Numbered from the whole stretch's first letter, positions 18,237-49,068 are shown. The stretch is DNA of 63,928 bases, filler included, from Craspedostauros australis (GCA_030167865.1; 9 parts of 9 records of this genome joined end to end with filler, not necessarily neighbours in it); one strand, 5' to 3'. Translations and numbers: made by a program. The notes: generated from the letters alone by a model not told the origin.

Positions 18237-18336
18237 NNNNNNNNNNNNNNNNNNNNNNNNNNNNNNNNNNNNNNNNNNNNTTAATTAATTAANNNNNNNN
18301 NNNNNNNNNNNNNNNNNNNNNNNNNNNNNNNNNNNN
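18237..18336. other. Assembly gap with an artificial TTAATTAATTAA linker (also at ~21986, 36541, 45143, 47856, 56272, 61539, 62845)
   Basis: The same N-run + 12-mer with six-frame stops + N-run recurs eight times. Confidence 0.97.
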
Positions 18337-36596: not shown

Positions 36597-36679
36597 GTGC
36601 TTGACTCCATCCGGTCCTGTGAGTCTGATGCCTCTCGTGGCCGAGCGCAGTCTTACCTCCTTAGTTGAGACACGAGTGG
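36597..36679. repeat. 83-bp terminal direct repeat (3' copy, putative A2)
   Basis: Identical to 45016-45098 (GTGCTTGACTCCATCC...GAGACACGAGTGG). Confidence 0.9.
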
Positions 36680-37089
36680 GTCATCCTGCGATCGTTTCAC
36701 AACATGCTCAAACTCCATCACATAATGACACGGTGGTGCTTCAATCTTGAAGAGTGCTTTGTTACTCTACTGTATTGAAGTACTAACGTGGGGGGTAAAT
36801 CGGGGACTGGCCAGTTGTGTGCTGGCTGGGCCCACTTGCCTGTTGGTGGCTGCTCTGCTCCTCTGCGTAAGGGCGAACTGAGAGTTCGATTCCTTGTAGC
36901 ATGTCCTTCATTTGCCTTGGTAGGCCCTGGGGACGACATCGTCGAGTCCCTTGGGGTCACCATGAGTAGGATAATGTTGGACGTGTTGAGCTGCTGCAGG
37001 CACCTTGGCACAAATCGGCTCCATTGTGGCAGGCTGCAACCTGGCACAATGAAGCCGGTCTCTCCCCCCTCGTTCTCCCCACAGATGTA

Positions 37090-38661
37090 TCACATCTGCT
37101 TCGAATACTCCAATACAGCAGGTAGCAAAGACTCCAGTGCTGAGTACGTGTCCACCATGTCGAGTCTTGGGTTGCCAGCTTTGGTACTGGCTTCGGTCCT
37201 CCAACGATTGTTGGCATTGATTGTGTCTTTCGATATCTTCATGTTCACGGCGTGAGATGTAGATCCCCTCCTTGCCGAGCGGTCGAGCCCGTATTGGTCT
37301 CGAATATCGATCTCCTTGTCGATGATGTGCTGGGCTTGGAGAGCCTCCAGTGTCGCATAGACGTCTTCCTTGAATTCCACAAGCTTGGGAGGGTTGAGCC
37401 GACGCGACATCAGACGACCATGGTGTTTACCAGCTGTCTCAAGTACGCGGACCAATCTCTCCACCCATTTTCCAGGTTGGAGTCCAGTGCCGGACGTAGT
37501 TTGGACGCAAGGCACATCGAATCTTGATCCGTCGTGTCTGTTACCCTTTGTTCTGCCGATGATGGCCAGGCGAAGGTGAGGGAGAGAAGGATCATGCAGG
37601 TGCTTGAGACTTTTTGCTGTACCCAATAGATCGATCTGCAATACTTCCTCTCCGCGCAGTCCTGTGCAGAAAGCAACGATAGTGAGCATAGCAACCTCAG
37701 CCGTCCTCTTTTGTCTTGACGCGTCATTATCAATGCGCCACTCTTGTTCCAGAACAGCTTCCAGCGCATGTATGTCATCAATCGTATATGGTCGTGCCGG
37801 CTTGCGGATCTGCCCGACTCTTCGGTGAGTGCCCTCCATGAATCTTGTAAACCAGAACTGATGAGATGGTACGTCCGACGTCCACATCCGTGACCTTTCG
37901 TAGGCCATGACTGAGTCGTTGAGACCTCTCACTCCGGCTTGATGGATGTTGGTAATCGCTGATCTGGTTCTGCGAAACGTTCCCCATTGGACATTTGTGG
38001 CATATCGGCCAGCATCCAGGGACCTGTCCAACACAGCCATGGCGCCTGCCATGCCGCACGAATCTTGAAGGGGGAAGGGGCCCATGGGTGCACTGATAGA
38101 GGGAATGCTCAATCTATCAGCGAAATCCTCCATTCGCACAGCTTCTCGTAGATTTGAGGCCACTGTGGATGACTCCCTGCTCCAGAATGCGTCCAGATTC
38201 GCGCGCCTGATGTACACCAGCATTTCTGTGTCTTGGTGTCTATGGTATTGAGGACTCCTGTGCATAATATTGCGAAAATGACACACATCACATTGGAATG
38301 GGACCATCAAATGATCTCCATTCCTTGCCTCCCGAAATCTTCTAGCGTCGATAGCTGGAGTGAGGTCGATACCATCCTCGTCCGTAGCAGTTTGAATCGG
38401 AAAACGTTTGTTCCCTGTTTCACAGTAGCACGGACCGCACCAAGCTGATCTACATGGGGCAAAGGTCCCGCGCGGACTTGAGAAATTCGCACAAAACACT
38501 CCTGCACCTCGTTGGATCAGCTTGCCACATATCGCGTTGCAACAGAACCTGGCGTGGTGTTTCCAATAGCCGGTGTTGTTCCTCAAGTCTTGGATTCCAG
38601 GACAGGTAGGGTAGGCAGATGAAGACAAAGAGAGGTTCCAGAAGGTGAGTGGGCCATTCAT
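37090..38661 (-). CDS. Tyrosine recombinase of the retrotransposon, with a Cys-rich N-terminal module
   Basis: CTGLRGEE (R), GRTKG (K), DRSARRG (HxxR box with R in place of H), NNRWR (W), MVDTY (Y). N-terminal CRSAWCGPC and FQCDVCHF. First ATG is 38661; overlaps the 3' end of pol by ~210 nt. Confidence 0.9.
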   Translation of the reverse strand: MNGPLTFWNLSLSSSAYPTCPGIQDLRNNTGYWKHHARFCCNAICGKLIQRGAGVFCANFSSPRGTFAPCRSAWCGPCYCETGNKRFPIQTATDEDGIDLTPAIDARRFREARNGDHLMVPFQCDVCHFRNIMHRSPQYHRHQDTEMLVYIRRANLDAFWSRESSTVASNLREAVRMEDFADRLSIPSISAPMGPFPLQDSCGMAGAMAVLDRSLDAGRYATNVQWGTFRRTRSAITNIHQAGVRGLNDSVMAYERSRMWTSDVPSHQFWFTRFMEGTHRRVGQIRKPARPYTIDDIHALEAVLEQEWRIDNDASRQKRTAEVAMLTIVAFCTGLRGEEVLQIDLLGTAKSLKHLHDPSLPHLRLAIIGRTKGNRHDGSRFDVPCVQTTSGTGLQPGKWVERLVRVLETAGKHHGRLMSRRLNPPKLVEFKEDVYATLEALQAQHIIDKEIDIRDQYGLDRSARRGSTSHAVNMKISKDTINANNRWRTEASTKAGNPRLDMVDTYSALESLLPAVLEYSKQM

Positions 38662-41600
38662 GGCAATGTTCGACCTTGAAGTAAAAGTCACTCAATCTCA
38701 GCATCTTCCTCCGCCATCTTCCGGTCATCAATCTGGGTATGCAAACCACATGCAAGCATTGCGGCCGTTTGTGTCGTGCCTTTCCGATCTGATCAATCAT
38801 GGCATCAGCTGCCGCTGGCGCAGACTCCCACACAAAGTTGCCCATTCTCTGTCCAGTACTGTACCATCCTTCTGGTGTGAGCCATTCATAATCGATTGCT
38901 GGCATCCAGCTTTTCATCATCTGCTTGATGTTGTTTCCTTGTCGCTGCGAGGGTGGCAGATGCAGAGGGATATGCTGTAGCATGCTTTCGCCAGCCATGA
39001 CACCCGTGCTATGGTCTGCCCGCGAGAGACCGTCGGTTCCTTGCGAAATCATTCGATCACCACTAACATGTATCACATGCAGTATCATGTTGGAATTCAT
39101 TTCAAGCAACCGCATCTCCAGCACAAGCTCAGCCAATCGCTTGGAAGTCGAATTGCCTTTCCAAAAGGCGCTCTCGGCTGTGGAGTTGTCTGTGAACAAG
39201 AAAATTTCACTGCCTTCCAATCTGAGTTTCTTCGCCCACTCTTTGAGGGCTTCCACAAGGTTTTTGAGCTCTCGCCAGTTAGAGGTGCTGGCTTCGTTCT
39301 CTTCGGAGGTCCATTCTCCATAATGATAAGCAATGTCCTCGCCAACCTGTATGGAAGCGCCAAAGCCTGCCTGCGATGCATCAGCAAAGCCATACCAAGC
39401 ACGTATGGTGTGGCCCGGCCGCATGAGTCGTAGCGGAGGTTCTGGAGCAAGGAAGAATTCATGCAGAGCATGCAAATCTGACTCGAATCGTGTTGCTGGT
39501 GTGACGTAGTCGGGTGGTACAACGTCATTGTGTTCCTCACTACTCACTGTTGCTGTCCGATGGATGTAGTTTAGGATACGCCATCCTTCGGCGTCTCTTC
39601 CTTCTCGCCATCCATCGATTGTGAGGTGAAAGCCGATGAGGTAGGGTGTCATCGGCTTGTATGTCTGACACAAGTAGTTGAGGAACCCACGAATTCGTTC
39701 GAGCTTCTTTCGCTCAATGAGATTGTTTGCTGTGAGATCCGCAAGGATGGAGTTAATCTGATCCCGACCCTTGTCCCATTTTTCTTGTGTAGCTGTGGCG
39801 TACACACCTGATGGGTGAGCAACGACCACAGCTCCTGTCCATGGTCCAGGGGTCTTTGTTGCGGCGCGTCGTTTCCGAGCGGCATCTTGGATGCCAAGGT
39901 AGGCCAGCATGTGGCCTACTCTCTTGGTGGCTTGCCAACAAATGTCGCACGATCCTCCTGTGGGACGCACATCATCAACATATATGAACGCGTCGGCTGC
40001 GATGTTGTCATGGATGTCCAATTTGGATACCCAAGGCAATGAGGAGTCATAAGACGACGAGCCTGGCAGGTTCATACGAACATGCGACCATTGGAATACG
40101 TTGCAGGGGTCGGTAGGAGAACCAAGGATGGTCTCTTCGGCATATAGCATGGCTTGCACAGCCTGATAGGGCGATGACTTCAGTCCCATTGCCGCTCTGT
40201 CCCATCGTTCCCACACAAGCTTTCCTGTTGCGTTGCCAGGAACCTCAGCAAGGTAGTGTGTGAGGTCGACTCCACAGACTTGTTTCAAGCAGGGATGCAG
40301 CATAAAGTTCAGAAACATCTCACCGATGTCGTTGTCCGCCATGAATGTGTTTGTGCCGACAGCTCGTAGATGCGTATCTAGCGTTGGCAAAGGAAAGCCA
40401 GGCACCCAGACCGAATCATTGAGACCGCTGGCTGTTGCGTCATACACCATTCTGATGTCTGTCTCGCCCTTTGGTACGCCGAAGAATGACGTCAGCGAAT
40501 CAACCTTGCCTGGCACGATGTATCGTTTGTGTCGTACCTTGGCCAGCTTGGCTGCCATCATGTCCCGAATTTTGGGATCTGTGGCATTTCGTTGTGGTTG
40601 TGTGTATCGAGGTGGCGGCGACTGAAAATGAACAGGCAGACCCTCTTGGATGATTGTCTGGTATTCAACAGCCCACCTCCAGAACAATGGACGCGATCCA
40701 TCATCCCAGTTCCACCACGACGAACGGCACACACGAGCAACAGCGTCACACCCTGCATCGAATCGATCGGGTGCACAAGTTCGTTGCTGTTGCCGCCAAG
40801 CCACATATCGGCTGCGTCCATTGCGACTCCATTGTACTGATCCATCCACCGAAGCAGACACCATTTTTGCGTGATCAGGATTCTGAGGTGCGTGATGCTG
40901 ACGGTACCACTTCCAGAAGGAAGTAGTTACTCGTCTACTCCACCACCCCAACATCCGTCGCCGCAGCAGGTCGCAACCAGCTTCAAGACCAGGCATGTCG
41001 TTGTCAGACCAATGGTGACAGGATCCTTTTGTTAATTGATCCATCCATAAATGAATAGGAATCGAGGCATCATCGGCCTTCGTGGCCTTCTGGGCCCGTC
41101 GATTCCATTCGGCTTCCTCCAAGACACTGCGCCGTAGATCAGCAGGGGCTCTCCAAGTCTTGATGGGAGAGTCGACTAATTGATGTGGCGCCGTCTGTGT
41201 GGTGGGTGAAGGAGTTATGGATGCCGTATGAGAGATGCTAGCGCTTGTTGGTGCATGCTTGTCATCCGAAGATGATGTAGAGGTAGTGGTTGGGAGTCGA
41301 TCCGGAGAGGACGACTCAGCGTCGAGCTGAGAGGGAGTGACAGATGATGTCACAACAGCCGCCGTTGGAACAAACGCCGTGGCAGTAGGGTCCAGCTTCT
41401 TATCCGCGATGCCGCGGTGCGGGCCAGCCGCTCGGTGATGTGTAATGTGTGCGGCAGCTGAAGGAAATGCAGATGATGATGAATCGAAAAGAAAGATACC
41501 CCCCTCGTTGAAAGTACGTAACTGGGAAAGAACAGAGAAGAACAGTTTGCCAGGAGTGGCAGAAGCAGAAGAAGGAGACAGCGTGAGAGCGACGGTGTCC

Positions 41601-42394
41601 GGATAATCCAGGGCGCGGAGGCGCTCGAAGGACTCGAGACGCCGCGCACACCATTGACCACGACCGAACACGGAAGGAGCCAACACAAATGCCGACCGAA
41701 GATCATCGATCGGAAAGAGACCGCCAGGATGCAGCACAGGCTGACCATACACCGGTTCAACGTCCGAATGGACGACACGAACCGGGCCGATGTCCAGTGT
41801 AGGCGGAGGAGGACGCCAGTGCGCGGAAGACAGCTTGTCATCCAGCACCGAATGAAGAGTGCGAGGAACCGAATGAATCTGAAGAGGACCCTGCGGGGGC
41901 AACGACGACCTCCAGAAGAAAGACGGCCAGCCAGAGGCAGTTGTAACGCCACCAACCTGCGCGTGCGTGACGCGCCACGAGCGAGCCGACCACCCAGAGG
42001 GGAGATACCGAGACCGACGCGACGAAGCAGCCACTGACAGCGAGCTGGAACCAATCAGAGAGAAAAGAGACCTCGTGATACAACGATCGACTAAAACGAG
42101 GCTAATGCGATTAAGCTGGTCCACCGACGGTAGTGCTGCCTGCAGCACCGCCAACGGAAGCAGCCGCAGAATGATCGGCCTGTCATCATCTGGACAGGAC
42201 CAGCCGGCAATGAAGCCGACGCGCCAGCCCAACGAATCCAGATCGAACACCCAGGCTGGGCATCGCGAAGCAATGACCCCAACGTCGCAACACACCCGTG
42301 CCGACCGTCGCCGCACATTGCCACTTGTGACACCATGCAGAGATGCCCGAGGCGAGTGGCGCAAAGAACGCACCCCACCCTCAGGCCCCTGGCT
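38450..42394 (-). CDS. Pol: degenerate C5-methyltransferase-like N-terminus, S/T linker, reverse transcriptase, RNase H, DIRS MT-like C-terminal domain
   Basis: RT: FFGVPKG..DIRMVYD, DNDIGEMFLNF, MGLKSSPY, FIYVDD. RNase H: FADASQAGFG, NWRELKN, FTDNSTA, GTDGLSR. C-terminus: WESAPAAAD...HVVCIPRLMTGRW. The frame is open from the gag stop, and the first ATG is only at 41044. Confidence 0.9.
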   Translation of the reverse strand, partial: SQGPEGGVRSLRHSPRASLHGVTSGNVRRRSARVCCDVGVIASRCPAWVFDLDSLGWRVGFIAGWSCPDDDRPIILRLLPLAVLQAALPSVDQLNRISLVLVDRCITRSLFSLIGSSSLSVAASSRRSRYLPSGWSARSWRVTHAQVGGVTTASGWPSFFWRSSLPPQGPLQIHSVPRTLHSVLDDKLSSAHWRPPPPTLDIGPVRVVHSDVEPVYGQPVLHPGGLFPIDDLRSAFVLAPSVFGRGQWCARRLESFERLRALDYPDTVALTLSPSSASATPGKLFFSVLSQLRTFNEGGIFLFDSSSSAFPSAAAHITHHRAAGPHRGIADKKLDPTATAFVPTAAVVTSSVTPSQLDAESSSPDRLPTTTSTSSSDDKHAPTSASISHTASITPSPTTQTAPHQLVDSPIKTWRAPADLRRSVLEEAEWNRRAQKATKADDASIPIHLWMDQLTKGSCHHWSDNDMPGLEAGCDLLRRRMLGWWSRRVTTSFWKWYRQHHAPQNPDHAKMVSASVDGSVQWSRNGRSRYVAWRQQQRTCAPDRFDAGCDAVARVCRSSWWNWDDGSRPLFWRWAVEYQTIIQEGLPVHFQSPPPRYTQPQRNATDPKIRDMMAAKLAKVRHKRYIVPGKVDSLTSFFGVPKGETDIRMVYDATASGLNDSVWVPGFPLPTLDTHLRAVGTNTFMADNDIGEMFLNFMLHPCLKQVCGVDLTHYLAEVPGNATGKLVWERWDRAAMGLKSSPYQAVQAMLYAEETILGSPTDPCNVFQWSHVRMNLPGSSSYDSSLPWVSKLDIHDNIAADAFIYVDDVRPTGGSCDICWQATKRVGHMLAYLGIQDAARKRRAATKTPGPWTGAVVVAHPSGVYATATQEKWDKGRDQINSILADLTANNLIERKKLERIRGFLNYLCQTYKPMTPYLIGFHLTIDGWREGRDAEGWRILNYIHRTATVSSEEHNDVVPPDYVTPATRFESDLHALHEFFLAPEPPLRLMRPGHTIRAWYGFADASQAGFGASIQVGEDIAYHYGEWTSEENEASTSNWRELKNLVEALKEWAKKLRLEGSEIFLFTDNSTAESAFWKGNSTSKRLAELVLEMRLLEMNSNMILHVIHVSGDRMISQGTDGLSRADHSTGVMAGESMLQHIPLHLPPSQRQGNNIKQMMKSWMPAIDYEWLTPEGWYSTGQRMGNFVWESAPAAADAMIDQIGKARHKRPQCLHVVCIPRLMTGRWRRKMLRLSDFYFKVEHCHEWPTHLLEPLFVFICLPYLSWNPRLEEQHRLLETPRQVLLQRDMWQADPTRCRSVLCEFLKSARDLCPM

Positions 42395-44743
42395 TCAGTT
42401 GCCGCTGTTCTTCTTCTTATGCTGGTTGACCTCGTTTTTGGCGTTAGCGCCGGTGCGCTTGGCATCAGCTGCCTTCTTGCTGCTGCGTTCAGCCTCGTCC
42501 ATCGCGTCCTGTGCGAGCACACGGACATTCTTCAGCTCGGCCTGTACGGTCTTAAGCTCGGAGCGATCGACACGCTCGGTGAGCTGGTACATGGACAACG
42601 CGCGCGCGAGCGCAGGGTGGCCATGAAAATCAACCTCCACAAGCGCATCGAGGATACGATGGCATCGAAGGACGGACCAGAACACCTTCGCCTTGCTGTC
42701 AATGTCGGACATCGCTCCAGCCACCAGGCTGGACTCGGAACGAACCAGGCACATCTCATCAAACACAGAGCAGACACAGCGACCAACCAGATTCCATGCC
42801 GTTGATGCCTGGAAGTTGGATGCTGTTGTGAGGTCCTGGTAGAAGCTCTGAATGAACCCAACCAGACTGTGCCAATGAGACTCAGCTTTGCTGTAGAGGA
42901 AGCCGGCCATAGCAGCCTGCACCGGGTTGCCGCAATGCGGCGTCTGACCGCGCAGCCCGTTGAGGTAGCTGCGGTAGGAGCCTGACACGATGGATCGGTA
43001 CGAAGACATGCCATTGGCCCACTTGTTCCATGTAGCAGCGGCTGCCAGGCCTTCCTCTGGCGATGCGATCTCGCCTCGCCCGCCCTTCGCGAACAGCGCA
43101 ACAGGACGCAGATGGCCCATTGAGGCAGCCAGGTCAATCTCGTTCACCGTCGCTGAAACACGACTGGCGGAGTACCCCTCATCCGCGCGATCCTTGCCGC
43201 TCTTGTTGGTTTTCGAGTGCATGGACACGAGCAGGGAGAACATATCCCAGAAGAGCCCCACTGACTGTACGTCGTTGGACTCCATCCAATCGCGAACGTC
43301 TTCGAACGAGGCAAACGTGACCCCATCGGCGGTGATGGCATGGTCCGACTGCAAGCGGAGAGCTTGGTCCACACGGCGCTCGACGCGTGCCAGCCTGTCT
43401 TCAACGTCGTCGCCGTGCCTGCCGGCCGCGGGAGAGACAGAGGGAAAGAAGGACGACGTCCGGCCGGGATCCATCTCATGCCGCAAGTCGGCGATGCGCC
43501 GGTTCACAGCGGCCTCGACCATGTCAGCAATCACACCGGGCGACGGATGGGACGCGCGTGGACTGCTGAGGGACGGCGGAACCGCCCGAGGCGGCGAGGC
43601 GGCAGGCAAAGCAGCTGCCTTCACATCAGTTTCCAGCTGGTCGAACCGCTCGATGATGACGGCGACGTTATCAGAGTAGTGTTGAAACAGCTGGTCGAAT
43701 GCACGACCGAGGACTGGGAGGTCCGAGGACCAGCGAGTGACGAAATCGAGCACACCAGCGTCCTGGAAAAGAGCTTGCTGGCTGTGGACTGACTCCACAG
43801 CTGCACGAAGTCCGATGACCTGTTCGCTGAGCGTCTCGTCCGAACCAGCCCCTTGGCCGATACGTGCGCTGAGTAGCTGGTCTTGTGCCTGAAGCCGCTG
43901 CATCCGGCCCGCCAGCGCTTCCACGTCCGTGGCCATGCCGTCGCGAAGTGCGCGTTGTCCGCGTCGCACGCCGTTGATCGCGTTTTGCAGGTGCAAGAAG
44001 TTTGAGCGAATGGAGTCCCAATCGTCGATGATGGAAATGAAATTGGAGCGAACGGGGTCAGTCGAGGCTGCAGCATCAGGATCCTCAGACAAGGGAGTCA
44101 ACTCCTCTGGTATCTCAAGCAAGAGAGATGCGTCGTCGCTGGCAAGCGGGCTGCTACGCGCCAGACCGCGCCGAGGCGAGGCCATAGTGGCAGCCGCAGC
44201 ATACTCGGAGACATCGACGACGAGAAGATCTTCCCCTGCCTCCATCAGAGACCGAGAGGACTCAATGTCCTGCAAGAACGCACGCCACACGGCCGGAGCC
44301 TTGCGCTCAGCAAGCAAGCTGTCCTTGGTGAGAGGAGCAGGCAACCAAGAGAGCGCAACAGAAGGCTCCAGCCGTGCTTGATCCGCCTTGAGCGTGCGGA
44401 CATAAAAGTTCCCTGCGGCGAGAGGTGCCTTGTTTGCAGCATGGCTCCTTGTGGTGCAGCCATCGCTGCGTGTGCAGAACCGAACAGCCCCTTTGGCCTC
44501 CGATCCACCGATAACGCCACCGCAGATGTCCTCAACAGACTCAACCCACAACAACGAAACAACACCAGCATCACCAACCCCGCCAACAACCCCCCTCGTC
44601 GAAGAAGCCGCAGAAGAAGGCGGAAACAACCCACCGCCAGCGCCGGAAGGCGAGCCACCACCGGAGGCAGCAACCCCAGAGCCACCGGCCGCAGGGCGCG
44701 ACCGAGGGACCGAAGGAACCGAACCAAGATCGAAGGAAGGCAT
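42395..44743 (-). CDS. Gag-like ORF1 of the YR retrotransposon
   Basis: 782 aa, positioned 5' of pol. Has a CGGVIG...RFC...C...H putative Zn module, coiled coils and a helical C-terminal domain. Confidence 0.8.
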   Translation of the reverse strand: MPSFDLGSVPSVPRSRPAAGGSGVAASGGGSPSGAGGGLFPPSSAASSTRGVVGGVGDAGVVSLLWVESVEDICGGVIGGSEAKGAVRFCTRSDGCTTRSHAANKAPLAAGNFYVRTLKADQARLEPSVALSWLPAPLTKDSLLAERKAPAVWRAFLQDIESSRSLMEAGEDLLVVDVSEYAAAATMASPRRGLARSSPLASDDASLLLEIPEELTPLSEDPDAAASTDPVRSNFISIIDDWDSIRSNFLHLQNAINGVRRGQRALRDGMATDVEALAGRMQRLQAQDQLLSARIGQGAGSDETLSEQVIGLRAAVESVHSQQALFQDAGVLDFVTRWSSDLPVLGRAFDQLFQHYSDNVAVIIERFDQLETDVKAAALPAASPPRAVPPSLSSPRASHPSPGVIADMVEAAVNRRIADLRHEMDPGRTSSFFPSVSPAAGRHGDDVEDRLARVERRVDQALRLQSDHAITADGVTFASFEDVRDWMESNDVQSVGLFWDMFSLLVSMHSKTNKSGKDRADEGYSASRVSATVNEIDLAASMGHLRPVALFAKGGRGEIASPEEGLAAAATWNKWANGMSSYRSIVSGSYRSYLNGLRGQTPHCGNPVQAAMAGFLYSKAESHWHSLVGFIQSFYQDLTTASNFQASTAWNLVGRCVCSVFDEMCLVRSESSLVAGAMSDIDSKAKVFWSVLRCHRILDALVEVDFHGHPALARALSMYQLTERVDRSELKTVQAELKNVRVLAQDAMDEAERSSKKAADAKRTGANAKNEVNQHKKKNSGN

Positions 44744-45015
44744 CGCGAAGCAGCGCCGAAAGCGAGGAAGGAGGGAAGCGAGAAAAGGAAAAAGTTGACA
44801 ACAAAGAAGGGCGAGTTTTCAGTGATCAATCCTGAATCCTCGTGCTTGTTTGGTGTCTGGATGTGATGATGATTGTTGTTGTGAGAGGAGCAGGCTGTTG
44901 ATTTGGACATAAATCCTCATCCTCACCTCTGGATCGTAGACCACGCATCAAGACTTGTTCATGATCTTCATGGTGTGTTCAACTCGTGATTTGGATGGAT
45001 CGCTTGAGTCCACCT

Positions 45016-45098
45016 GTGCTTGACTCCATCCGGTCCTGTGAGTCTGATGCCTCTCGTGGCCGAGCGCAGTCTTACCTCCTTAGTTGAGACACGAGTGG
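45016..45098. repeat. 83-bp terminal direct repeat (5' copy, putative A1)
   Basis: Identical to 36597-36679; ends at the gap. Confidence 0.9.
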
Positions 45099-45198: not shown

Positions 45199-45656
45199 GG
45201 ATTCAACGACGCTGGTGACGCGACCATGCTCTCATCGGGTCCCACCATGAGCATGATGGCCATCGCCATGTCCGTGATTCCGTATTGATGATACATCAAT
45301 CGTGCCGCATCGTCCTTCAAGACTTCGTAGGCCTTCTGCACATCTTCCAACTTCTGTTGAGCATACTCGTATGCGCTGCCTGTGTCGTTCTTCTGCGTTG
45401 ATCGGATCTTGTCGGGATGATACTTGCGAGACATCATGCGGTACTGCTTCGTGATCTCGGCTGTCGTTGCGTTGGAGCGCACCTGCAGAACATCATACAG
45501 AGTGGTGTCGTGCGGTGGTTGGGAGATGTGCTTGCGATGCATCTTGAGCAAGATCGAGGACACGTCGGGTGCCTTAGCGGCAGCCATGGTGATGGCCATG
45601 CTCAGCGCGATGCACAATGCAATCCATCCCGTCTCCATCATGGTGGTCGTTCTCAT
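45199..45656 (-). CDS. DnaJ-domain protein with signal peptide, copy 1 (3' truncated by the gap)
   Basis: TLYDVLQV..NAT..EI.KQYR..SRKYHPDK...AYEVLKD...R..Y (J-domain with HPD); hydrophobic N-terminus. Confidence 0.85.
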
Positions 45657-46249
45657 CTGAGCAAAGCTGCGACTAATCCTGGTACGGATACGGATACTCG
45701 TACGGATACAGATACAGATACGGTCACTGGTGGTTGGTTCTGCCCGTCGATGACGCTGCGCAAGTACGGATGAGATGAAAGTCAAACAGTGACGTCCCGT
45801 CGAATCATCGTTGTTTGTGTTTGAGACTTTCTGGAGAAAACTGGTCGTCCACACAAATAGTAGTAGTGCTATACGAGAACTTGTACGACTACTCGTACGA
45901 TCTATGAGGATGGTGACAACAAGATCGATGGTTGTGTGTGTTGACGATGGCAACGCAGAATTGATGAACAAAAGAGGGAAATGTGTGTTGGTTGTGGCGC
46001 CAAATCGTGTGTTGTTGTCACGTTGCGGTTCTCAAACGACCCGCTGAACTCGTTGGACTCAATGCAACACATTCGTTGGTGTTTCGCACTTCACGAACAC
46101 CTGTTGTAACCGTTGGACACAAAGATCACAGTCAACACTCAGCGATTTGCCAGAGGAGGCAAAGGAACATGTCATCATTCCACTCCCAACAAGGGAGGGA
46201 GGACAGCATCCAACTGCATTGCGCCGGTTGTGGCGGAGAAGGGGGTGCA

Positions 46250-47911: not shown

Positions 47912-48369
47912 GGATTCAACGACGCTGGTGACGCGACCATGCTCTCATCGGGTCCCACCATGAGCATGATGGCCATCGCCATGTCCGTGATTCCGTATTG
48001 ATGATACATCAATCGTGCCGCATCGTCCTTCAAGACTTCGTAGGCCTTCTGCACATCTTCCAACTTCTGTTGAGCATACTCGTATGCGCTGCCTGTGTCG
48101 TTCTTCTGCGTTGATCGGATCTTGTCGGGATGATACTTGCGAGACATCATGCGGTACTGCTTCGTGATCTCGGCTGTCGTTGCGTTGGAGCGCACCTGCA
48201 GAACATCATACAGAGTGGTGTCGTGCGGTGGTTGGGAGATGTGCTTGCGATGCATCTTGAGCAAGATCGAGGACACGTCGGGTGCCTTAGCGGCAGCCAT
48301 GGTGATGGCCATGCTCAGCGCGATGCACAATGCAATCCATCCCGTCTCCATCATGGTGGTCGTTCTCAT
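47912..48369 (-). CDS. DnaJ-domain protein, copy 2 (coding sequence same as copy 1; probable allele)
   Basis: Same translation from MRTTTMM to SPASLN, and truncated at the same base next to a gap. Confidence 0.8.
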
Positions 48370-49068
48370 CTGAGCAAAGCTGCGACTAATCCTGGTATGA
48401 ATACGGGTACTCGGACGGCCACTGGTGGTTGGTTCTGCCCGTCGATGACAGTGTGCGAGTACGGATGAGATGAAAGTCAAACAGTGACGTCCCGTCGAAT
48501 CATCGTTGTTTGTGTTTGAGACTTTCTGGAGAAAACTGGTCGTCCACACAAATAGTAGTAGTGCTATACGAGAACTTGTACGACTACTCGTACGATCTAT
48601 GAGGATGGTGACAACAAGATCGATGGTTGTGTGTGTTGACGATGGTGACAGAATCGATGGAACAAAAGAGGGAAATGTGTGTTGGTTGTGGCGCCAAATC
48701 GTGCGTTGTTGTCACGTTGCGGTTCTCAAACGACTCGCTGGACTCGTTGGACTCGTTGGACTCAATGCGACACATCAAACGTGAACCACAAATGACGAAA
48801 AAAGCCATTCACGCAAGCAACTTGACATGCGCGGAAAGATGAGGAAAGAACGAACAAATCAACAAGGGAAACAATCAACGGACAAGTCTCCATCTTGGCT
48901 ACCTGTGTACATCCATCCATCCATCCATCAATCCATCAATCCATCTTGACTTCGGAGTGTCCACATCAAGCCCAGAATCACTGGCAATCGAGGGAACGAA
49001 GGTATCCGCAAGCGGCTCTGTCCAACAGCAATCCAAATACTTCCATCTTTCAGAAGAACGTCCGTGGC

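Follow-up and report, generated by a model that had tools for sequence, protein, structure and literature searches.

A candidate stop-codon read-through signal between gag and pol of a tyrosine-recombinase retrotransposon from Craspedostauros australis

How can Pol be translated from a retrotransposon whose pol frame begins directly at the stop codon of gag and has no ATG for hundreds of codons? This question is raised by a locus of Craspedostauros australis (GCA_030167865.1) within a window of 63,928 nucleotides, the whole stretch of DNA that was analysed, in which parts of nine records of the genome are joined end to end with filler. On the minus strand, a pol open frame of 1,314 codons (38450..42394, stop to stop) shares the frame of gag and is separated from it solely by the junction UGA (42395..42397; context GGC AAC UGA AGC CAG). 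Counted from the gag ATG (44743) through the pol TAG (38452-38450), the frame has 2,098 positions and exactly two stops, namely the TGA of the junction and the TAG at its end, leaving one internal stop in the 2,097 codons of gag and pol. The original prediction had placed the gag TGA at 42397-42395 with a frame open from there to 38450, which our ORF calls confirmed, as they did, for this copy, its claim that the first ATG lies about 450 codons on (codon 451, at 41044) and that the DNMT-like domain has no AUG of its own.

The 8,502-nt contig that carries these frames is bounded by linkers, and its ends share one identical 83-nt sequence (36597..36679, no strand assigned, identical to 45016-45098), giving a unit of 8,419 nt. 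Elements of the DIRS order characteristically end in ITR+ICR or in split direct repeats (A1-B1A2B2); on this contig the end overlap is the sole terminal structure seen, as a collapsed or circular assembly might produce, and apart from it no internal repeats longer than 26 nt were found within the 8.5-kb contig. The contig encodes three intact ORFs of 782 (gag-like), 1,314 (Pol) and 533 (ORF3) codons. The gag-like ORF1 (42398..44743, minus strand) is counted from its first ATG at 44743, within a stop-to-stop frame of 807 codons (42395..44818) that is open from 44818. Its product is rich in Cys and His towards the N-terminus and coiled-coil-like in the middle, and its C-terminal half is conserved and ends in a NEVNQHKKK-type tail. 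It has 613 relatives at E ≤ 1e-3, whereas a Pfam search at E ≤ 10 gave nothing beyond a chance DivIVA match. ORF3 (37093..38661, minus strand; ATG 38661, stop TGA 37092-37090) is in the +1 frame relative to pol, the overlap of its open frame with the pol ORF being about 240 nt, or about 210 nt from its ATG. By sequence, ORF3 gave no Pfam or PDB match. Its AF2 model (pLDDT 70.8) gave 17 Foldseek matches at E ≤ 1e-3 with Cre, XerH and lambda Int on top, and the Atlas lead was PF00589. In addition to an N-terminal Cys/His motif, ORF3 has invariant R346, K382, R471, W497 and Y516 and near-invariant R474, R475 and H480. Since ORF3 has a tyrosine-recombinase (YR) fold, the element is assigned to the DIRS order; neither a protease nor a DDE integrase is present in it. 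All relatives bearing a source name come from diatoms, and there are hundreds of environmental relatives, many of which sit on contigs of 8–9 kb. The 8.5-kb contig is best explained as a near-intact tyrosine-recombinase (DIRS-order) retrotransposon belonging to a large, mostly unannotated family.

The ends of gag in that family bear on the nature of the junction stop. In 14 of 18 aligned relatives gag terminates 3–13 residues past a Q/K-rich (K-rich) motif, the distance in our copy being nine residues, and in the remaining four it terminates 20–35 residues past it; the last residues of full-length gag relatives align at query positions of about 776–782. No gag-pol fusion was present among the best 150 of 613 gag matches, all of which are ≤936 aa in length, and the best 120 of 743 pol matches span 722–1,536 aa, with proteins of up to 2,300 aa having been eligible. 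Because fusion-sized proteins are absent from these best gag and pol matches, a sense codon at the junction is not the family norm. Judging from the aligned proteins, the junction stop is the natural, ancestral and family-wide terminus of gag, and the private nonsense mutation that the original prediction had named as a possible refutation, with a sense codon in sister copies, is excluded at the protein level.

It is quite unlikely, in our estimate, that the copy or its assembly is unrepresentative, with a frame relation that is private or a chimeric or collapsed consensus and with a Pol that is not expressed. This explanation draws on there being a single copy in the window (tblastn of the three ORFs against it returned self matches alone) and on the identical 83-nt contig ends, which are typical of a collapsed repeat or a circular assembly path. 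A scan of genome contigs likewise yielded no relative. However, all three ORFs are intact and every family-invariant residue in the Pol and ORF3 alignments is kept, the position of the stop is that of the conserved gag terminus and not a random one, and a hairpin in the top 0.1% for stability at exactly this spot, as described below, would be unlikely in a decaying copy.

The product of the frame beyond the stop begins with a domain (pol codons about 19–300; 41495..42340, minus strand) whose predicted structure is a C5 cytosine DNA-methyltransferase fold. Its AF2 model (pLDDT 83.4, pTM 0.80) matched M.HhaI first in Foldseek (E 1.8e-7, TM 0.56–0.61), followed by matches to DNMT2, MET1, DNMT1 and DIM2, bearing out the fold in the earlier label of "DNMT-like". 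In an alignment of 16 sequences (A1), 11 residues of the first 300 pol codons are invariant (H144, G149, P197, H222, G225, P228, R251, E257, D263, G298 and G299), all of which are kept in our copy, and a motif-IX-like RRLxxxExLxAxDxPD is present. The catalytic hallmark of C5 methyltransferases is the Pro-Cys nucleophile of motif IV. Across the 16 sequences no cysteine of the domain is invariant or near-invariant, leaving no conserved Pro-Cys of motif IV, and neither Pol of this copy nor those of family members matched Pfam DNA_methylase. "DNMT" is accordingly a description of the modelled fold and implies no activity.

The domain is joined to the stop by an 18-codon linker, SQGPEGGVRSLRHSPRAS (42341..42394, minus strand), which leads to the first conserved residues (LHG), lacks protein conservation and is predicted to be disordered (pLDDT <50 for residues 1–30). 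Alignment and model together indicate that, from codon 19 onwards, constraint acts on the protein encoded past the stop. Further downstream are a variable Ser/Thr/Pro-rich linker without an ATG (codons about 301–450; 41045..41494, minus strand) and, from the first ATG, the rest of Pol (38453..41044, minus strand; stop TAG 38452-38450), with a putative, divergent reverse transcriptase (RT), RNase H-like motifs and a conserved C-terminal domain, tentatively the MT of the original prediction. A YVDD motif for RT and a DAS...E...TDN set resembling RNase H were read by eye from alignment A1, and RVT_1 gave weak matches in five of the 16 family members (best E 0.0079) but none in our copy. Pol has 743 relatives, with a best identity of 56%.

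Where Pol starts in those relatives was surveyed in the annotated proteins of the best 120 of the 743. The whole DNMT-fold domain is covered in 40 of them, 31 starting with Met and nine without; the annotated start is inside the domain in 37 and past it in 43, so that 80 of the 120 have no start before the domain. In the 40 proteins with the whole domain, between 0 and 82 aa precede its LRG motif (median 17.5), compared with 18 here, and among the 56 relatives on contigs of at least 8 kb a Met start upstream of the domain is found in 17. The closest relative, P0002, has a Met just before the domain (MELTNMVQVPISSNM-SLHG). These annotations indicate that the family has no conserved Pol initiator. 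Since 31 of the 120 relatives have a Met shortly upstream of the domain, separate initiation of Pol is possible in those elements.

Translation of Pol apart from Gag is the alternative that has most to be weighed against read-through, and we regard it as unlikely for this element. The RNA translated into Pol would be subgenomic or made from an internal promoter, or else initiation would be internal or near-cognate, at the GUG of codon 8 or the UUG of codon 11 (both in the linker) or at the CUG of codon 19 (the L of LHG), and the structure after the stop would be unrelated (serving packaging or dimerisation) or would pause scanning ribosomes over a near-cognate start. The presence of these three codons in frame in the short stretch from the stop to the conserved LHG is favourable to such initiation, as are the ATG just before the domain in 31 of the 120 relatives, the nine more that are called with non-ATG starts, and the Tca2 junction, which in the available part of its description carries a cryptic promoter and does not signal read-through autonomously (PMC2194720). 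However, in our copy 450 codons go by without an ATG, the starts of relatives are unconserved (0–82 aa upstream of the motif, with none before the domain in 80 of the 120), and the in-frame abutment of pol on the gag stop with zero gap would be left unexplained.

The linker coincides with a stem-loop that ViennaRNA predicted at 42338..42391 (minus strand), comprising 20 bp that include five G.U pairs. On the minus strand, a weaker outer helix (42391/42390-42387 with 42342-42338) is followed by an AU bulge, a core helix of 8 bp (42386-42379 with 42352-42345) and an apical stem of 8 bp with a 5-nt loop. The pairing put forward in the original prediction, CAGGG/GCCUGAGG ... CCUCGGGC/AU bulge/CUCUG at 42391-42338, was thereby recovered, with the apical stem in addition. 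The spacer between the UGA and the core helix, AGCCAGGG (42387..42394, minus strand), is 8 nt long, and its last 4–5 nt can join the outer helix; the 3-nt spacer proposed earlier holds for the outer helix (3–4 nt) but not for the core. Spacers of proven read-through stimulators are 6–9 nt in the portion of Firth et al. 2011 that covers them (PMC3159437).

High stability was predicted for the sense strand, with a 71-nt fold at −32.6 kcal/mol (z = −2.56) that one of 200 dinucleotide shuffles equalled, compared with −18.7 kcal/mol for the antisense strand (z = −0.18; 81 of 200 shuffles equal or better). The earlier claim of a sense-strand preference agrees with these energies and with the five G.U pairs. 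Of all the distinct 60-nt segments of the 8,502-nt sense strand, just one is more stable than the segment that starts 1 nt past the stop, and segments that equal or exceed it in stability make up a fraction of 0.0004 overall and of 0.0012 among 848 GC-matched segments. The hairpin's stability also exceeds that of 1,985 of 2,000 synonymous recodings of its 21 codons, the other 15 folding equally well, and it fills almost exactly the 54-nt stretch that lacks protein conservation. When 181 nt are folded together, the core and apical helices are retained, with the whole stretch having z = −0.64 and 51 of 200 shuffles being as stable. An Rfam search of the hairpin returned no family at E ≤ 1 and no recoding element. 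The folding predictions support a sense-specific hairpin that is unusual by these statistics and sits where known stimulators of read-through do.

The stop could instead be lost from the mRNA if a very short in-frame intron removed it and fused Gag to Pol. A total of 27 in-frame GT..AG pairs (30–300 nt) span the stop, two of which spare the conserved residues on both sides, from GT 42430 to AG 42389 (42 nt) or to AG 42380 (51 nt). We consider such an intron highly improbable, as both candidates share the weak donor GTCAAC and would remove the conserved K-rich gag tail together with the 5' arm of the hairpin, and the usual introns of diatoms are longer than either.

Read-through of the gag UGA to yield Gag-Pol is, among these possibilities, the best explanation, and we judge the chances that it is correct to be evenly balanced. 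The genomic RNA would be read in the order Gag (782 aa), Pol and ORF3 (YR), with the majority of ribosomes stopping at the gag UGA to give Gag. In a minority, a near-cognate tRNA would decode the UGA to produce an in-frame Gag-Pol of roughly 2,097 aa, ordered as Gag, the 18-aa linker, the DNMT-fold domain, the Ser/Thr-rich linker, RT, RNase H and the C-terminal domain. With the UGA in the A site, the stem-loop, whose core begins 8 nt past the stop, would be located at the mRNA entrance of the ribosome, where it may slow termination or favour decoding by tRNA and potentially set the ratio of Gag to Gag-Pol. Both read-through itself and this role of the hairpin are what we infer from the arrangement of the junction. 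To our knowledge, UGA-A is no recognised leaky context. The AAC UGA AGC found here is outside the recognised set of UGA-C, UGA-CGG/CUA, UAG-CAA-UUA and UAG-G, part of which is given in PMC3159437. The Gag-Pol read-through of the original prediction is strengthened by the conserved gag terminus, the conserved coding without an ATG, the C5-DNMT fold and the unusual hairpin, and weakened by the A after the stop and the Met starts of 31 of 120 relatives. Also counting against it are the single copy on a contig that is possibly a collapsed assembly, the 181-nt region being no more structured than its shuffles, the lack of an Rfam match and the Tca2 precedent.

For gammaretroviruses, read-through to Gag-Pol in the presence of a 3' structure is textbook knowledge, and it is reported in some LTR retrotransposons. 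As in our element, Gag and Pol of the gammaretrovirus MuLV are in one frame with one stop between them (gag-UAG-pol), and a low ratio of Gag-Pol to Gag is the presumed purpose. According to the available text of PMC3159437, read-through in MuLV needs a compact structure that lies 8 nt past the stop. Our element differs in having UGA followed by A, whereas MuLV has UAG-G, in its predicted bulged stem-loop, with no pseudoknot identified in the ViennaRNA folds, and in encoding a tyrosine recombinase without a protease or DDE integrase. The stop is likewise UGA, and a 3' stem-loop follows it, in the read-through sites of alphaviruses, tobra-, furo- and pecluviruses, a coltivirus and Drosophila kelch, whose stems, in the part of Firth et al. 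2011 (PMC3159437) that treats them, have about 11–12 or more bp with spacers of 7–9 nt and raise read-through 3- to 14-fold. However, according to the same text, those stems usually enclose loops of about 100 nt after UGA-C or UGA-CGG and rest on synonymous-site conservation and covariation, whereas ours is a local 54-nt hairpin after UGA-AGC that is predicted from one copy.

The Candida albicans retrotransposon Tca2, a Ty1/copia LTR element, likewise carries gag and pol in one frame that one UGA interrupts, and a structure, in its case a pseudoknot, is predicted 3' of the stop. Its Pol comes from gag-pol RNA, and the accessible portion of Forbes et al. 2007 (PMC2194720) reports that its junction gave no read-through in an S. 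cerevisiae reporter and hid a cryptic promoter. By analogy, Tca2 is a warning that the same anatomy is no proof of mechanism.

In the literature available to us, the closest described architecture is that of the Symbiodinium element SymbioDIRS-Dnmt3 (de Mendoza et al. 2018, PMC5890265, in part). It is likewise DIRS-like, its Pol ORF combines a cytosine-DNMT-type domain with an RT that diverges too far for the Pfam seed alignments, and its tyrosine recombinase is encoded by an ORF of its own. The SymbioDIRS domains are recognisable as Dnmt3 with activity reported, according to the same partial source, whereas ours has no Pfam DNA_methylase match and no invariant cysteine, and the named hosts of its relatives are diatoms instead of Symbiodinium. 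Ngaro/PAT-like elements have the order gag, RT-RH and YR (Ngaro in a stramenopile; PMC8547959, in part), as our element probably does, and share with it the lack of a protease or DDE integrase. They differ in that RT, RH and YR of Ngaro are detected by Pfam (PF00078, PF17919 and PF00589; PMC8547959, in part), which was not so here, and in that no methyltransferase domain is described for Ngaro in the available portion of PMC3266345, whereas our Pol has the DNMT-fold domain. Within the literature searched, which included parts of PMC3266345, PMC3783388, PMC6681497 and PMC8547959, we found no description of read-through for tyrosine-recombinase retrotransposons.

The junction would be a further case of an already known sort of recoding signal. 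A broader proposal, which we advance tentatively as somewhat improbable, is that hairpin-driven UGA read-through is the family-wide route to Pol in a large, undescribed diatom lineage of tyrosine-recombinase elements whose Pol starts with a cysteine-less DNMT-fold domain; the DIRS order would thereby gain its first described recoding signal, with the domain delivered only within Gag-Pol as the N-terminal part of Pol. Translational recoding in diatoms is little studied, and the junction, if its read-through is real, would offer a compact and testable recoding signal in them as well as explain how Pol is expressed in a family with hundreds of environmental relatives and a Pol usually without an initiator. 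Recognition of the gag-pol junction would also improve the annotation of this retrotransposon family, whose elements are split by gene callers, with Pol cut at the first internal Met in 80 of the best 120 of 743 relatives.

The retrotransposon lies on the minus strand of a single contig (36597–45098; 8,502 nt) that is separate from the other parts of the window. Its gag-like frame, open from 44818 and with ATG first occurring at 44743, is closed by a TGA (42397–42395), after which the same frame runs for 1,314 codons without a stop to the TAG at 38452–38450 that closes pol. From the gag ATG to the end of pol, only the UGA at the junction and the UAG that ends pol interrupt the frame, two stops in 2,098 positions, and past the junction the pol frame has no ATG until codon 451 (41044). 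The original prediction was therefore correct to the base in its description of the frames, including the single junction UGA and the position of that ATG. As the two frames coincide, −1 or +1 frameshifting is not needed, and termination–reinitiation was ruled out by there being no AUG near the junction stop. A variant genetic code with UGA as a sense codon was also ruled out, based on the single UGA in 2,097 in-frame codons and on ORF3 ending in UGA. Selenocysteine insertion at the junction was considered and set aside. The junction is explained most economically by programmed read-through of the gag UGA aided by the stem-loop that follows it, a reading to which we give about an even chance of being correct; most of the product would then be Gag, with Gag-Pol of roughly 2,097 aa as a small fraction arising from the assisted read-through. 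Were a tiny in-frame intron responsible instead, it would be a candidate of either 42 or 51 nt, but the two share the same weak GTCAAC donor and we consider splicing very improbable.

The stop is evidently not peculiar to this copy. An exhaustive HMMER search with a 1,200-aa query, in which gag was joined through a W in place of the UGA to the first 417 codons of pol, identified 613 gag relatives at E≤1e-3, which indicates that the blank result of a word-indexed search (0 relatives among 8,000 candidates) reflected a limit of the index. Full-length gag relatives (672–936 aa) have their own C-termini within a few residues of query positions ~776–782, where this gag stops. Counted from the Q/K-rich gag tail in an alignment of 18 sequences, the proteins end 3–13 residues later in 14 cases and 20–35 residues later in the other four, the distance in this copy being 9. 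Among the best 150 of the 613 gag matches none was longer than 936 aa, and only P0203, a relative of 336 aa, matched the part of the query after the stop. Of the 743 relatives found for pol, the best 120 were 722–1,536 aa in length, although proteins of up to 2,300 aa were eligible. A private nonsense mutation, the circumstance that the original prediction had named as speaking against it, is thus not what is found, since the gag relatives end at the same place. With no fused gag-pol ORF seen among the best 150 of 613 gag relatives or these 120 of pol, the split between gag and pol here is, judging from these sequences, ancestral, the relation of the two frames being known from this copy alone. 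The K-rich N-terminal extensions of two pol relatives, P0018 and P0030, have a likeness to the gag tail that was discounted as low-complexity, and a scan of bacterial and archaeal genome contigs with the pol alignment gave 53 pattern matches and no confirmed relative.

Mapping of the best 120 of the 743 pol relatives onto a profile of the pol alignment revealed that their annotated starts are widely scattered. The whole first Pol domain is covered by 40 of the annotated proteins (31 starting with M, nine with another residue), whereas 37 start inside it (30 with M, seven other) and 43 after it (32 with M, 11 other). Similar variety was observed in the 56 relatives on contigs of at least 8 kb, a subset that omits the genome gene model P0102 and P0055, for which there is no contig size: 22 span the domain, 17 of them with an initial M, another 20 begin within it and 14 after it. 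Damaged copies can be a source of the short annotated starts. The extension upstream of the LRG motif, the first conserved residues of Pol, is 0–82 residues in the domain-covering relatives (median 17.5), and here there are 18 codons between it and the stop. Based on these varied positions the family has no conserved Pol initiator, which fits translation of Pol as an extension of Gag, and a Pol start before the domain is absent in this copy. Independent initiation of Pol, which we consider unlikely, could draw on in-frame GUG, UUG and CUG codons that lie within the linker or directly at its boundary with the domain, and the closest relative, P0002, has Met residues just before the domain.

The pairing proposed in the original prediction for the sequence after the UGA was recovered by ViennaRNA, which added an apical stem to it. 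The predicted hairpin (minus strand) has an outer helix (42391/90–42387 with 42342–42338), an AU bulge between helices, a core helix of 8 bp (42386–42379 with 42352–42345) and an apical stem of 8 bp with a 5-nt loop, for a total of 20 bp, of which five are G.U. A 71-nt sense fold has a free energy of −32.6 kcal/mol (z = −2.56; 1 of 200 shuffles as good), compared with −18.7 kcal/mol for the complementary strand (z = −0.18; 81 of 200 as good), bearing out the earlier argument from the G.U pairs that the hairpin belongs to the mRNA strand. The 60-nt window starting 1 nt past the stop is the second most stable distinct one among all sense-strand windows of the element, the fraction as stable being 0.0004 overall and 0.0012 among 848 GC-matched windows. 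Synonymous recodings of the same 21 codons with the element's own codon usage averaged −21.4 ± 3.9 kcal/mol versus −32.5 kcal/mol for the native sequence, and 15 of 2,000 were as stable. Counting against the hairpin, a fold of 181 nt of context retained the core and apical helices but was unexceptional as a whole (z = −0.64; 51 of 200 shuffles as good). No Rfam family was matched at E≤1 anywhere in the element, and inspection by eye for a pseudoknot revealed no obvious downstream partner for the 5-nt apical loop.

The core helix is separated from the UGA by an 8-nt spacer, similar in length to those of proven read-through stimulators, for which passages of PMC3159437 give 8 nt in MuLV, 8–9 nt in VEEV, 8 nt in the tobravirus group, 7 nt in furoviruses, 9 nt in a benyvirus and 6 nt in SEPN1. 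The mechanism itself is of an already known kind, and no report of read-through in tyrosine-recombinase retrotransposons was found in a search of the literature on these elements outside key subscription reviews. Our estimate for read-through is held down by the UGA-A context, by the precedent of Tca2 and by the comparison of relatives being at the protein level. To our knowledge, UGA followed by A is not among the recognised leaky contexts. In Tca2, as described in portions of PMC2194720, a gag-UGA-pol junction with a predicted pseudoknot did not direct read-through in yeast and contains a cryptic promoter, and Pol is nonetheless made from gag-pol RNA.

The 18 codons after the UGA (SQGPEGGVRSLRHSPRAS) are not conserved, were modelled as disordered (pLDDT <50 for residues 1–30) and form a linker of nearly the same extent as the hairpin. 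From codon 19, where this copy has LHG and most relatives LRG, there is a domain of ~280 residues (41495–42340, minus strand) conserved in 16 sequences, with 11 invariant residues, all of which are kept in this copy. Its AlphaFold model is confident (pLDDT 83.4, pTM 0.80) and matches C5 cytosine DNA methyltransferases, with M.HhaI as the top match (E 1.8e-7, TM 0.56–0.61) followed by DNMT2, MET1, DNMT1, DIM2, M.HaeIII and M.MpeI, and 42 matches in total at E≤1e-3. The domain also contains the stretch RRLxxxExLxAxDxPD, which we take to resemble motif IX of these enzymes. However, no invariant or near-invariant cysteine was present in the 16-sequence alignment and the Pfam DNA_methylase model had no match to the domain. 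The earlier label of DNMT-like consequently holds for the fold (M.HhaI, TM ~0.6), whereas catalytic competence is doubtful, and on the structural model this may be an inactive or repurposed DNMT carried by a retrotransposon. Downstream on the same strand are a variable Ser/Thr/Pro-rich linker, a divergent RT with YVDD (a weak RVT_1 match in five of 16 family members, not including this copy), RNase H-like motifs read by eye and, at the end of pol, a conserved C-terminal domain, which the original prediction had labelled MT. An artefact of assembly, or a copy that is dead or not representative, is a still less likely explanation of the junction than independent initiation, being weakened by the three intact ORFs and the retention of all invariant residues.

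ORF3 (38691–37093, minus strand; ATG at 38661), at the 6-kb-downstream position, ends in TGA and is in the +1 frame, overlapping the end of pol by about 240 nt (38453–38691) with an ATG of its own. Conserved Cys/His motifs in its N-terminal part (CxxC..., PFQCDxCHFRN) suggest, at the sequence level, zinc binding. In the alignment of its relatives Arg, Lys, Arg, Trp and Tyr are invariant, in the order expected of tyrosine recombinases, and a His is near-invariant. A structural model of ORF3 (pLDDT 70.8) gave 17 matches at E≤1e-3, among them Cre, XerH and lambda integrase, and a protein-atlas look-up led to clusters partly carrying PF00589, while sequence searches of ORF3 against Pfam and PDB gave no match. 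These residues and model matches identify the element as a tyrosine-recombinase (DIRS-order) retrotransposon with the order gag, pol, YR, the same gene order as in Ngaro according to parts of PMC8547959. Among described architectures the closest is that of SymbioDIRS-Dnmt3 from Symbiodinium, which, in sections of PMC5890265, carries a cytosine DNMT within Pol, has its YR in a separate ORF and has an RT unaligned by Pfam seeds; the DNMT-fold domain here is comparable to, but distinct from, that of SymbioDIRS-Dnmt3.

The relatives named by source are from diatoms (Nitzschia inconspicua and Cylindrotheca fusiformis), and the family comprises 743 pol, 613 gag and 403 ORF3 relatives, many on environmental contigs of 8–9 kb; the best ORF3 relative (69% identity) and the best pol relative (56% identity) share one MMETSP transcript label. 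No listed relative has a precomputed Pfam domain, no Pfam family was matched by the three ORFs of this copy, and PDB searches by sequence and by profile gave no match except one of low complexity. This is a large family hidden from standard annotation, with its Gag, RT, DNMT-like domain and YR all invisible to Pfam, and, being abundant and having a DNMT-fold domain, it may be more notable than the junction.

The same 83 nt are present at both ends of the contig (36597–36679 and 45016–45098; 100% identical), making the unit of the element 8,419 nt and suggesting a circular assembly path, whether from a tandem copy, collapsed terminal repeats or circular cDNA. As the contig has no other internal repeat >26 nt, DIRS-type termini are not definable on it, and tblastn of the three ORFs matched only themselves in the window, which thus has no second copy. 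The most stable 60-nt window of the element (~37010–37066, minus strand; −34.7 kcal/mol) is ~24 nt past the ORF3 stop (37092–37090); a 101-nt fold there gave a near-perfect hairpin of 13 bp and 5 bp (−40.7 kcal/mol, z = −2.24; 6 of 200 shuffles as good) that may be a 3′-end, terminator or recombination-site feature. Eight 100-nt linkers, N44-TTAATTAATTAA-N44, starting at 18237, 21942, 36497, 45099, 47812, 56228, 61495 and 62811, place a stop in all six frames, and since they join small contigs any "genes" on either side of a linker are physically unlinked. The starts of two neighbouring contigs (45199–46060 and 47912–48754) are related to each other, with identities of 100% over 200 nt, 94% over 257 nt and 97% over 95 nt, in a repeat that is unrelated to the retrotransposon.
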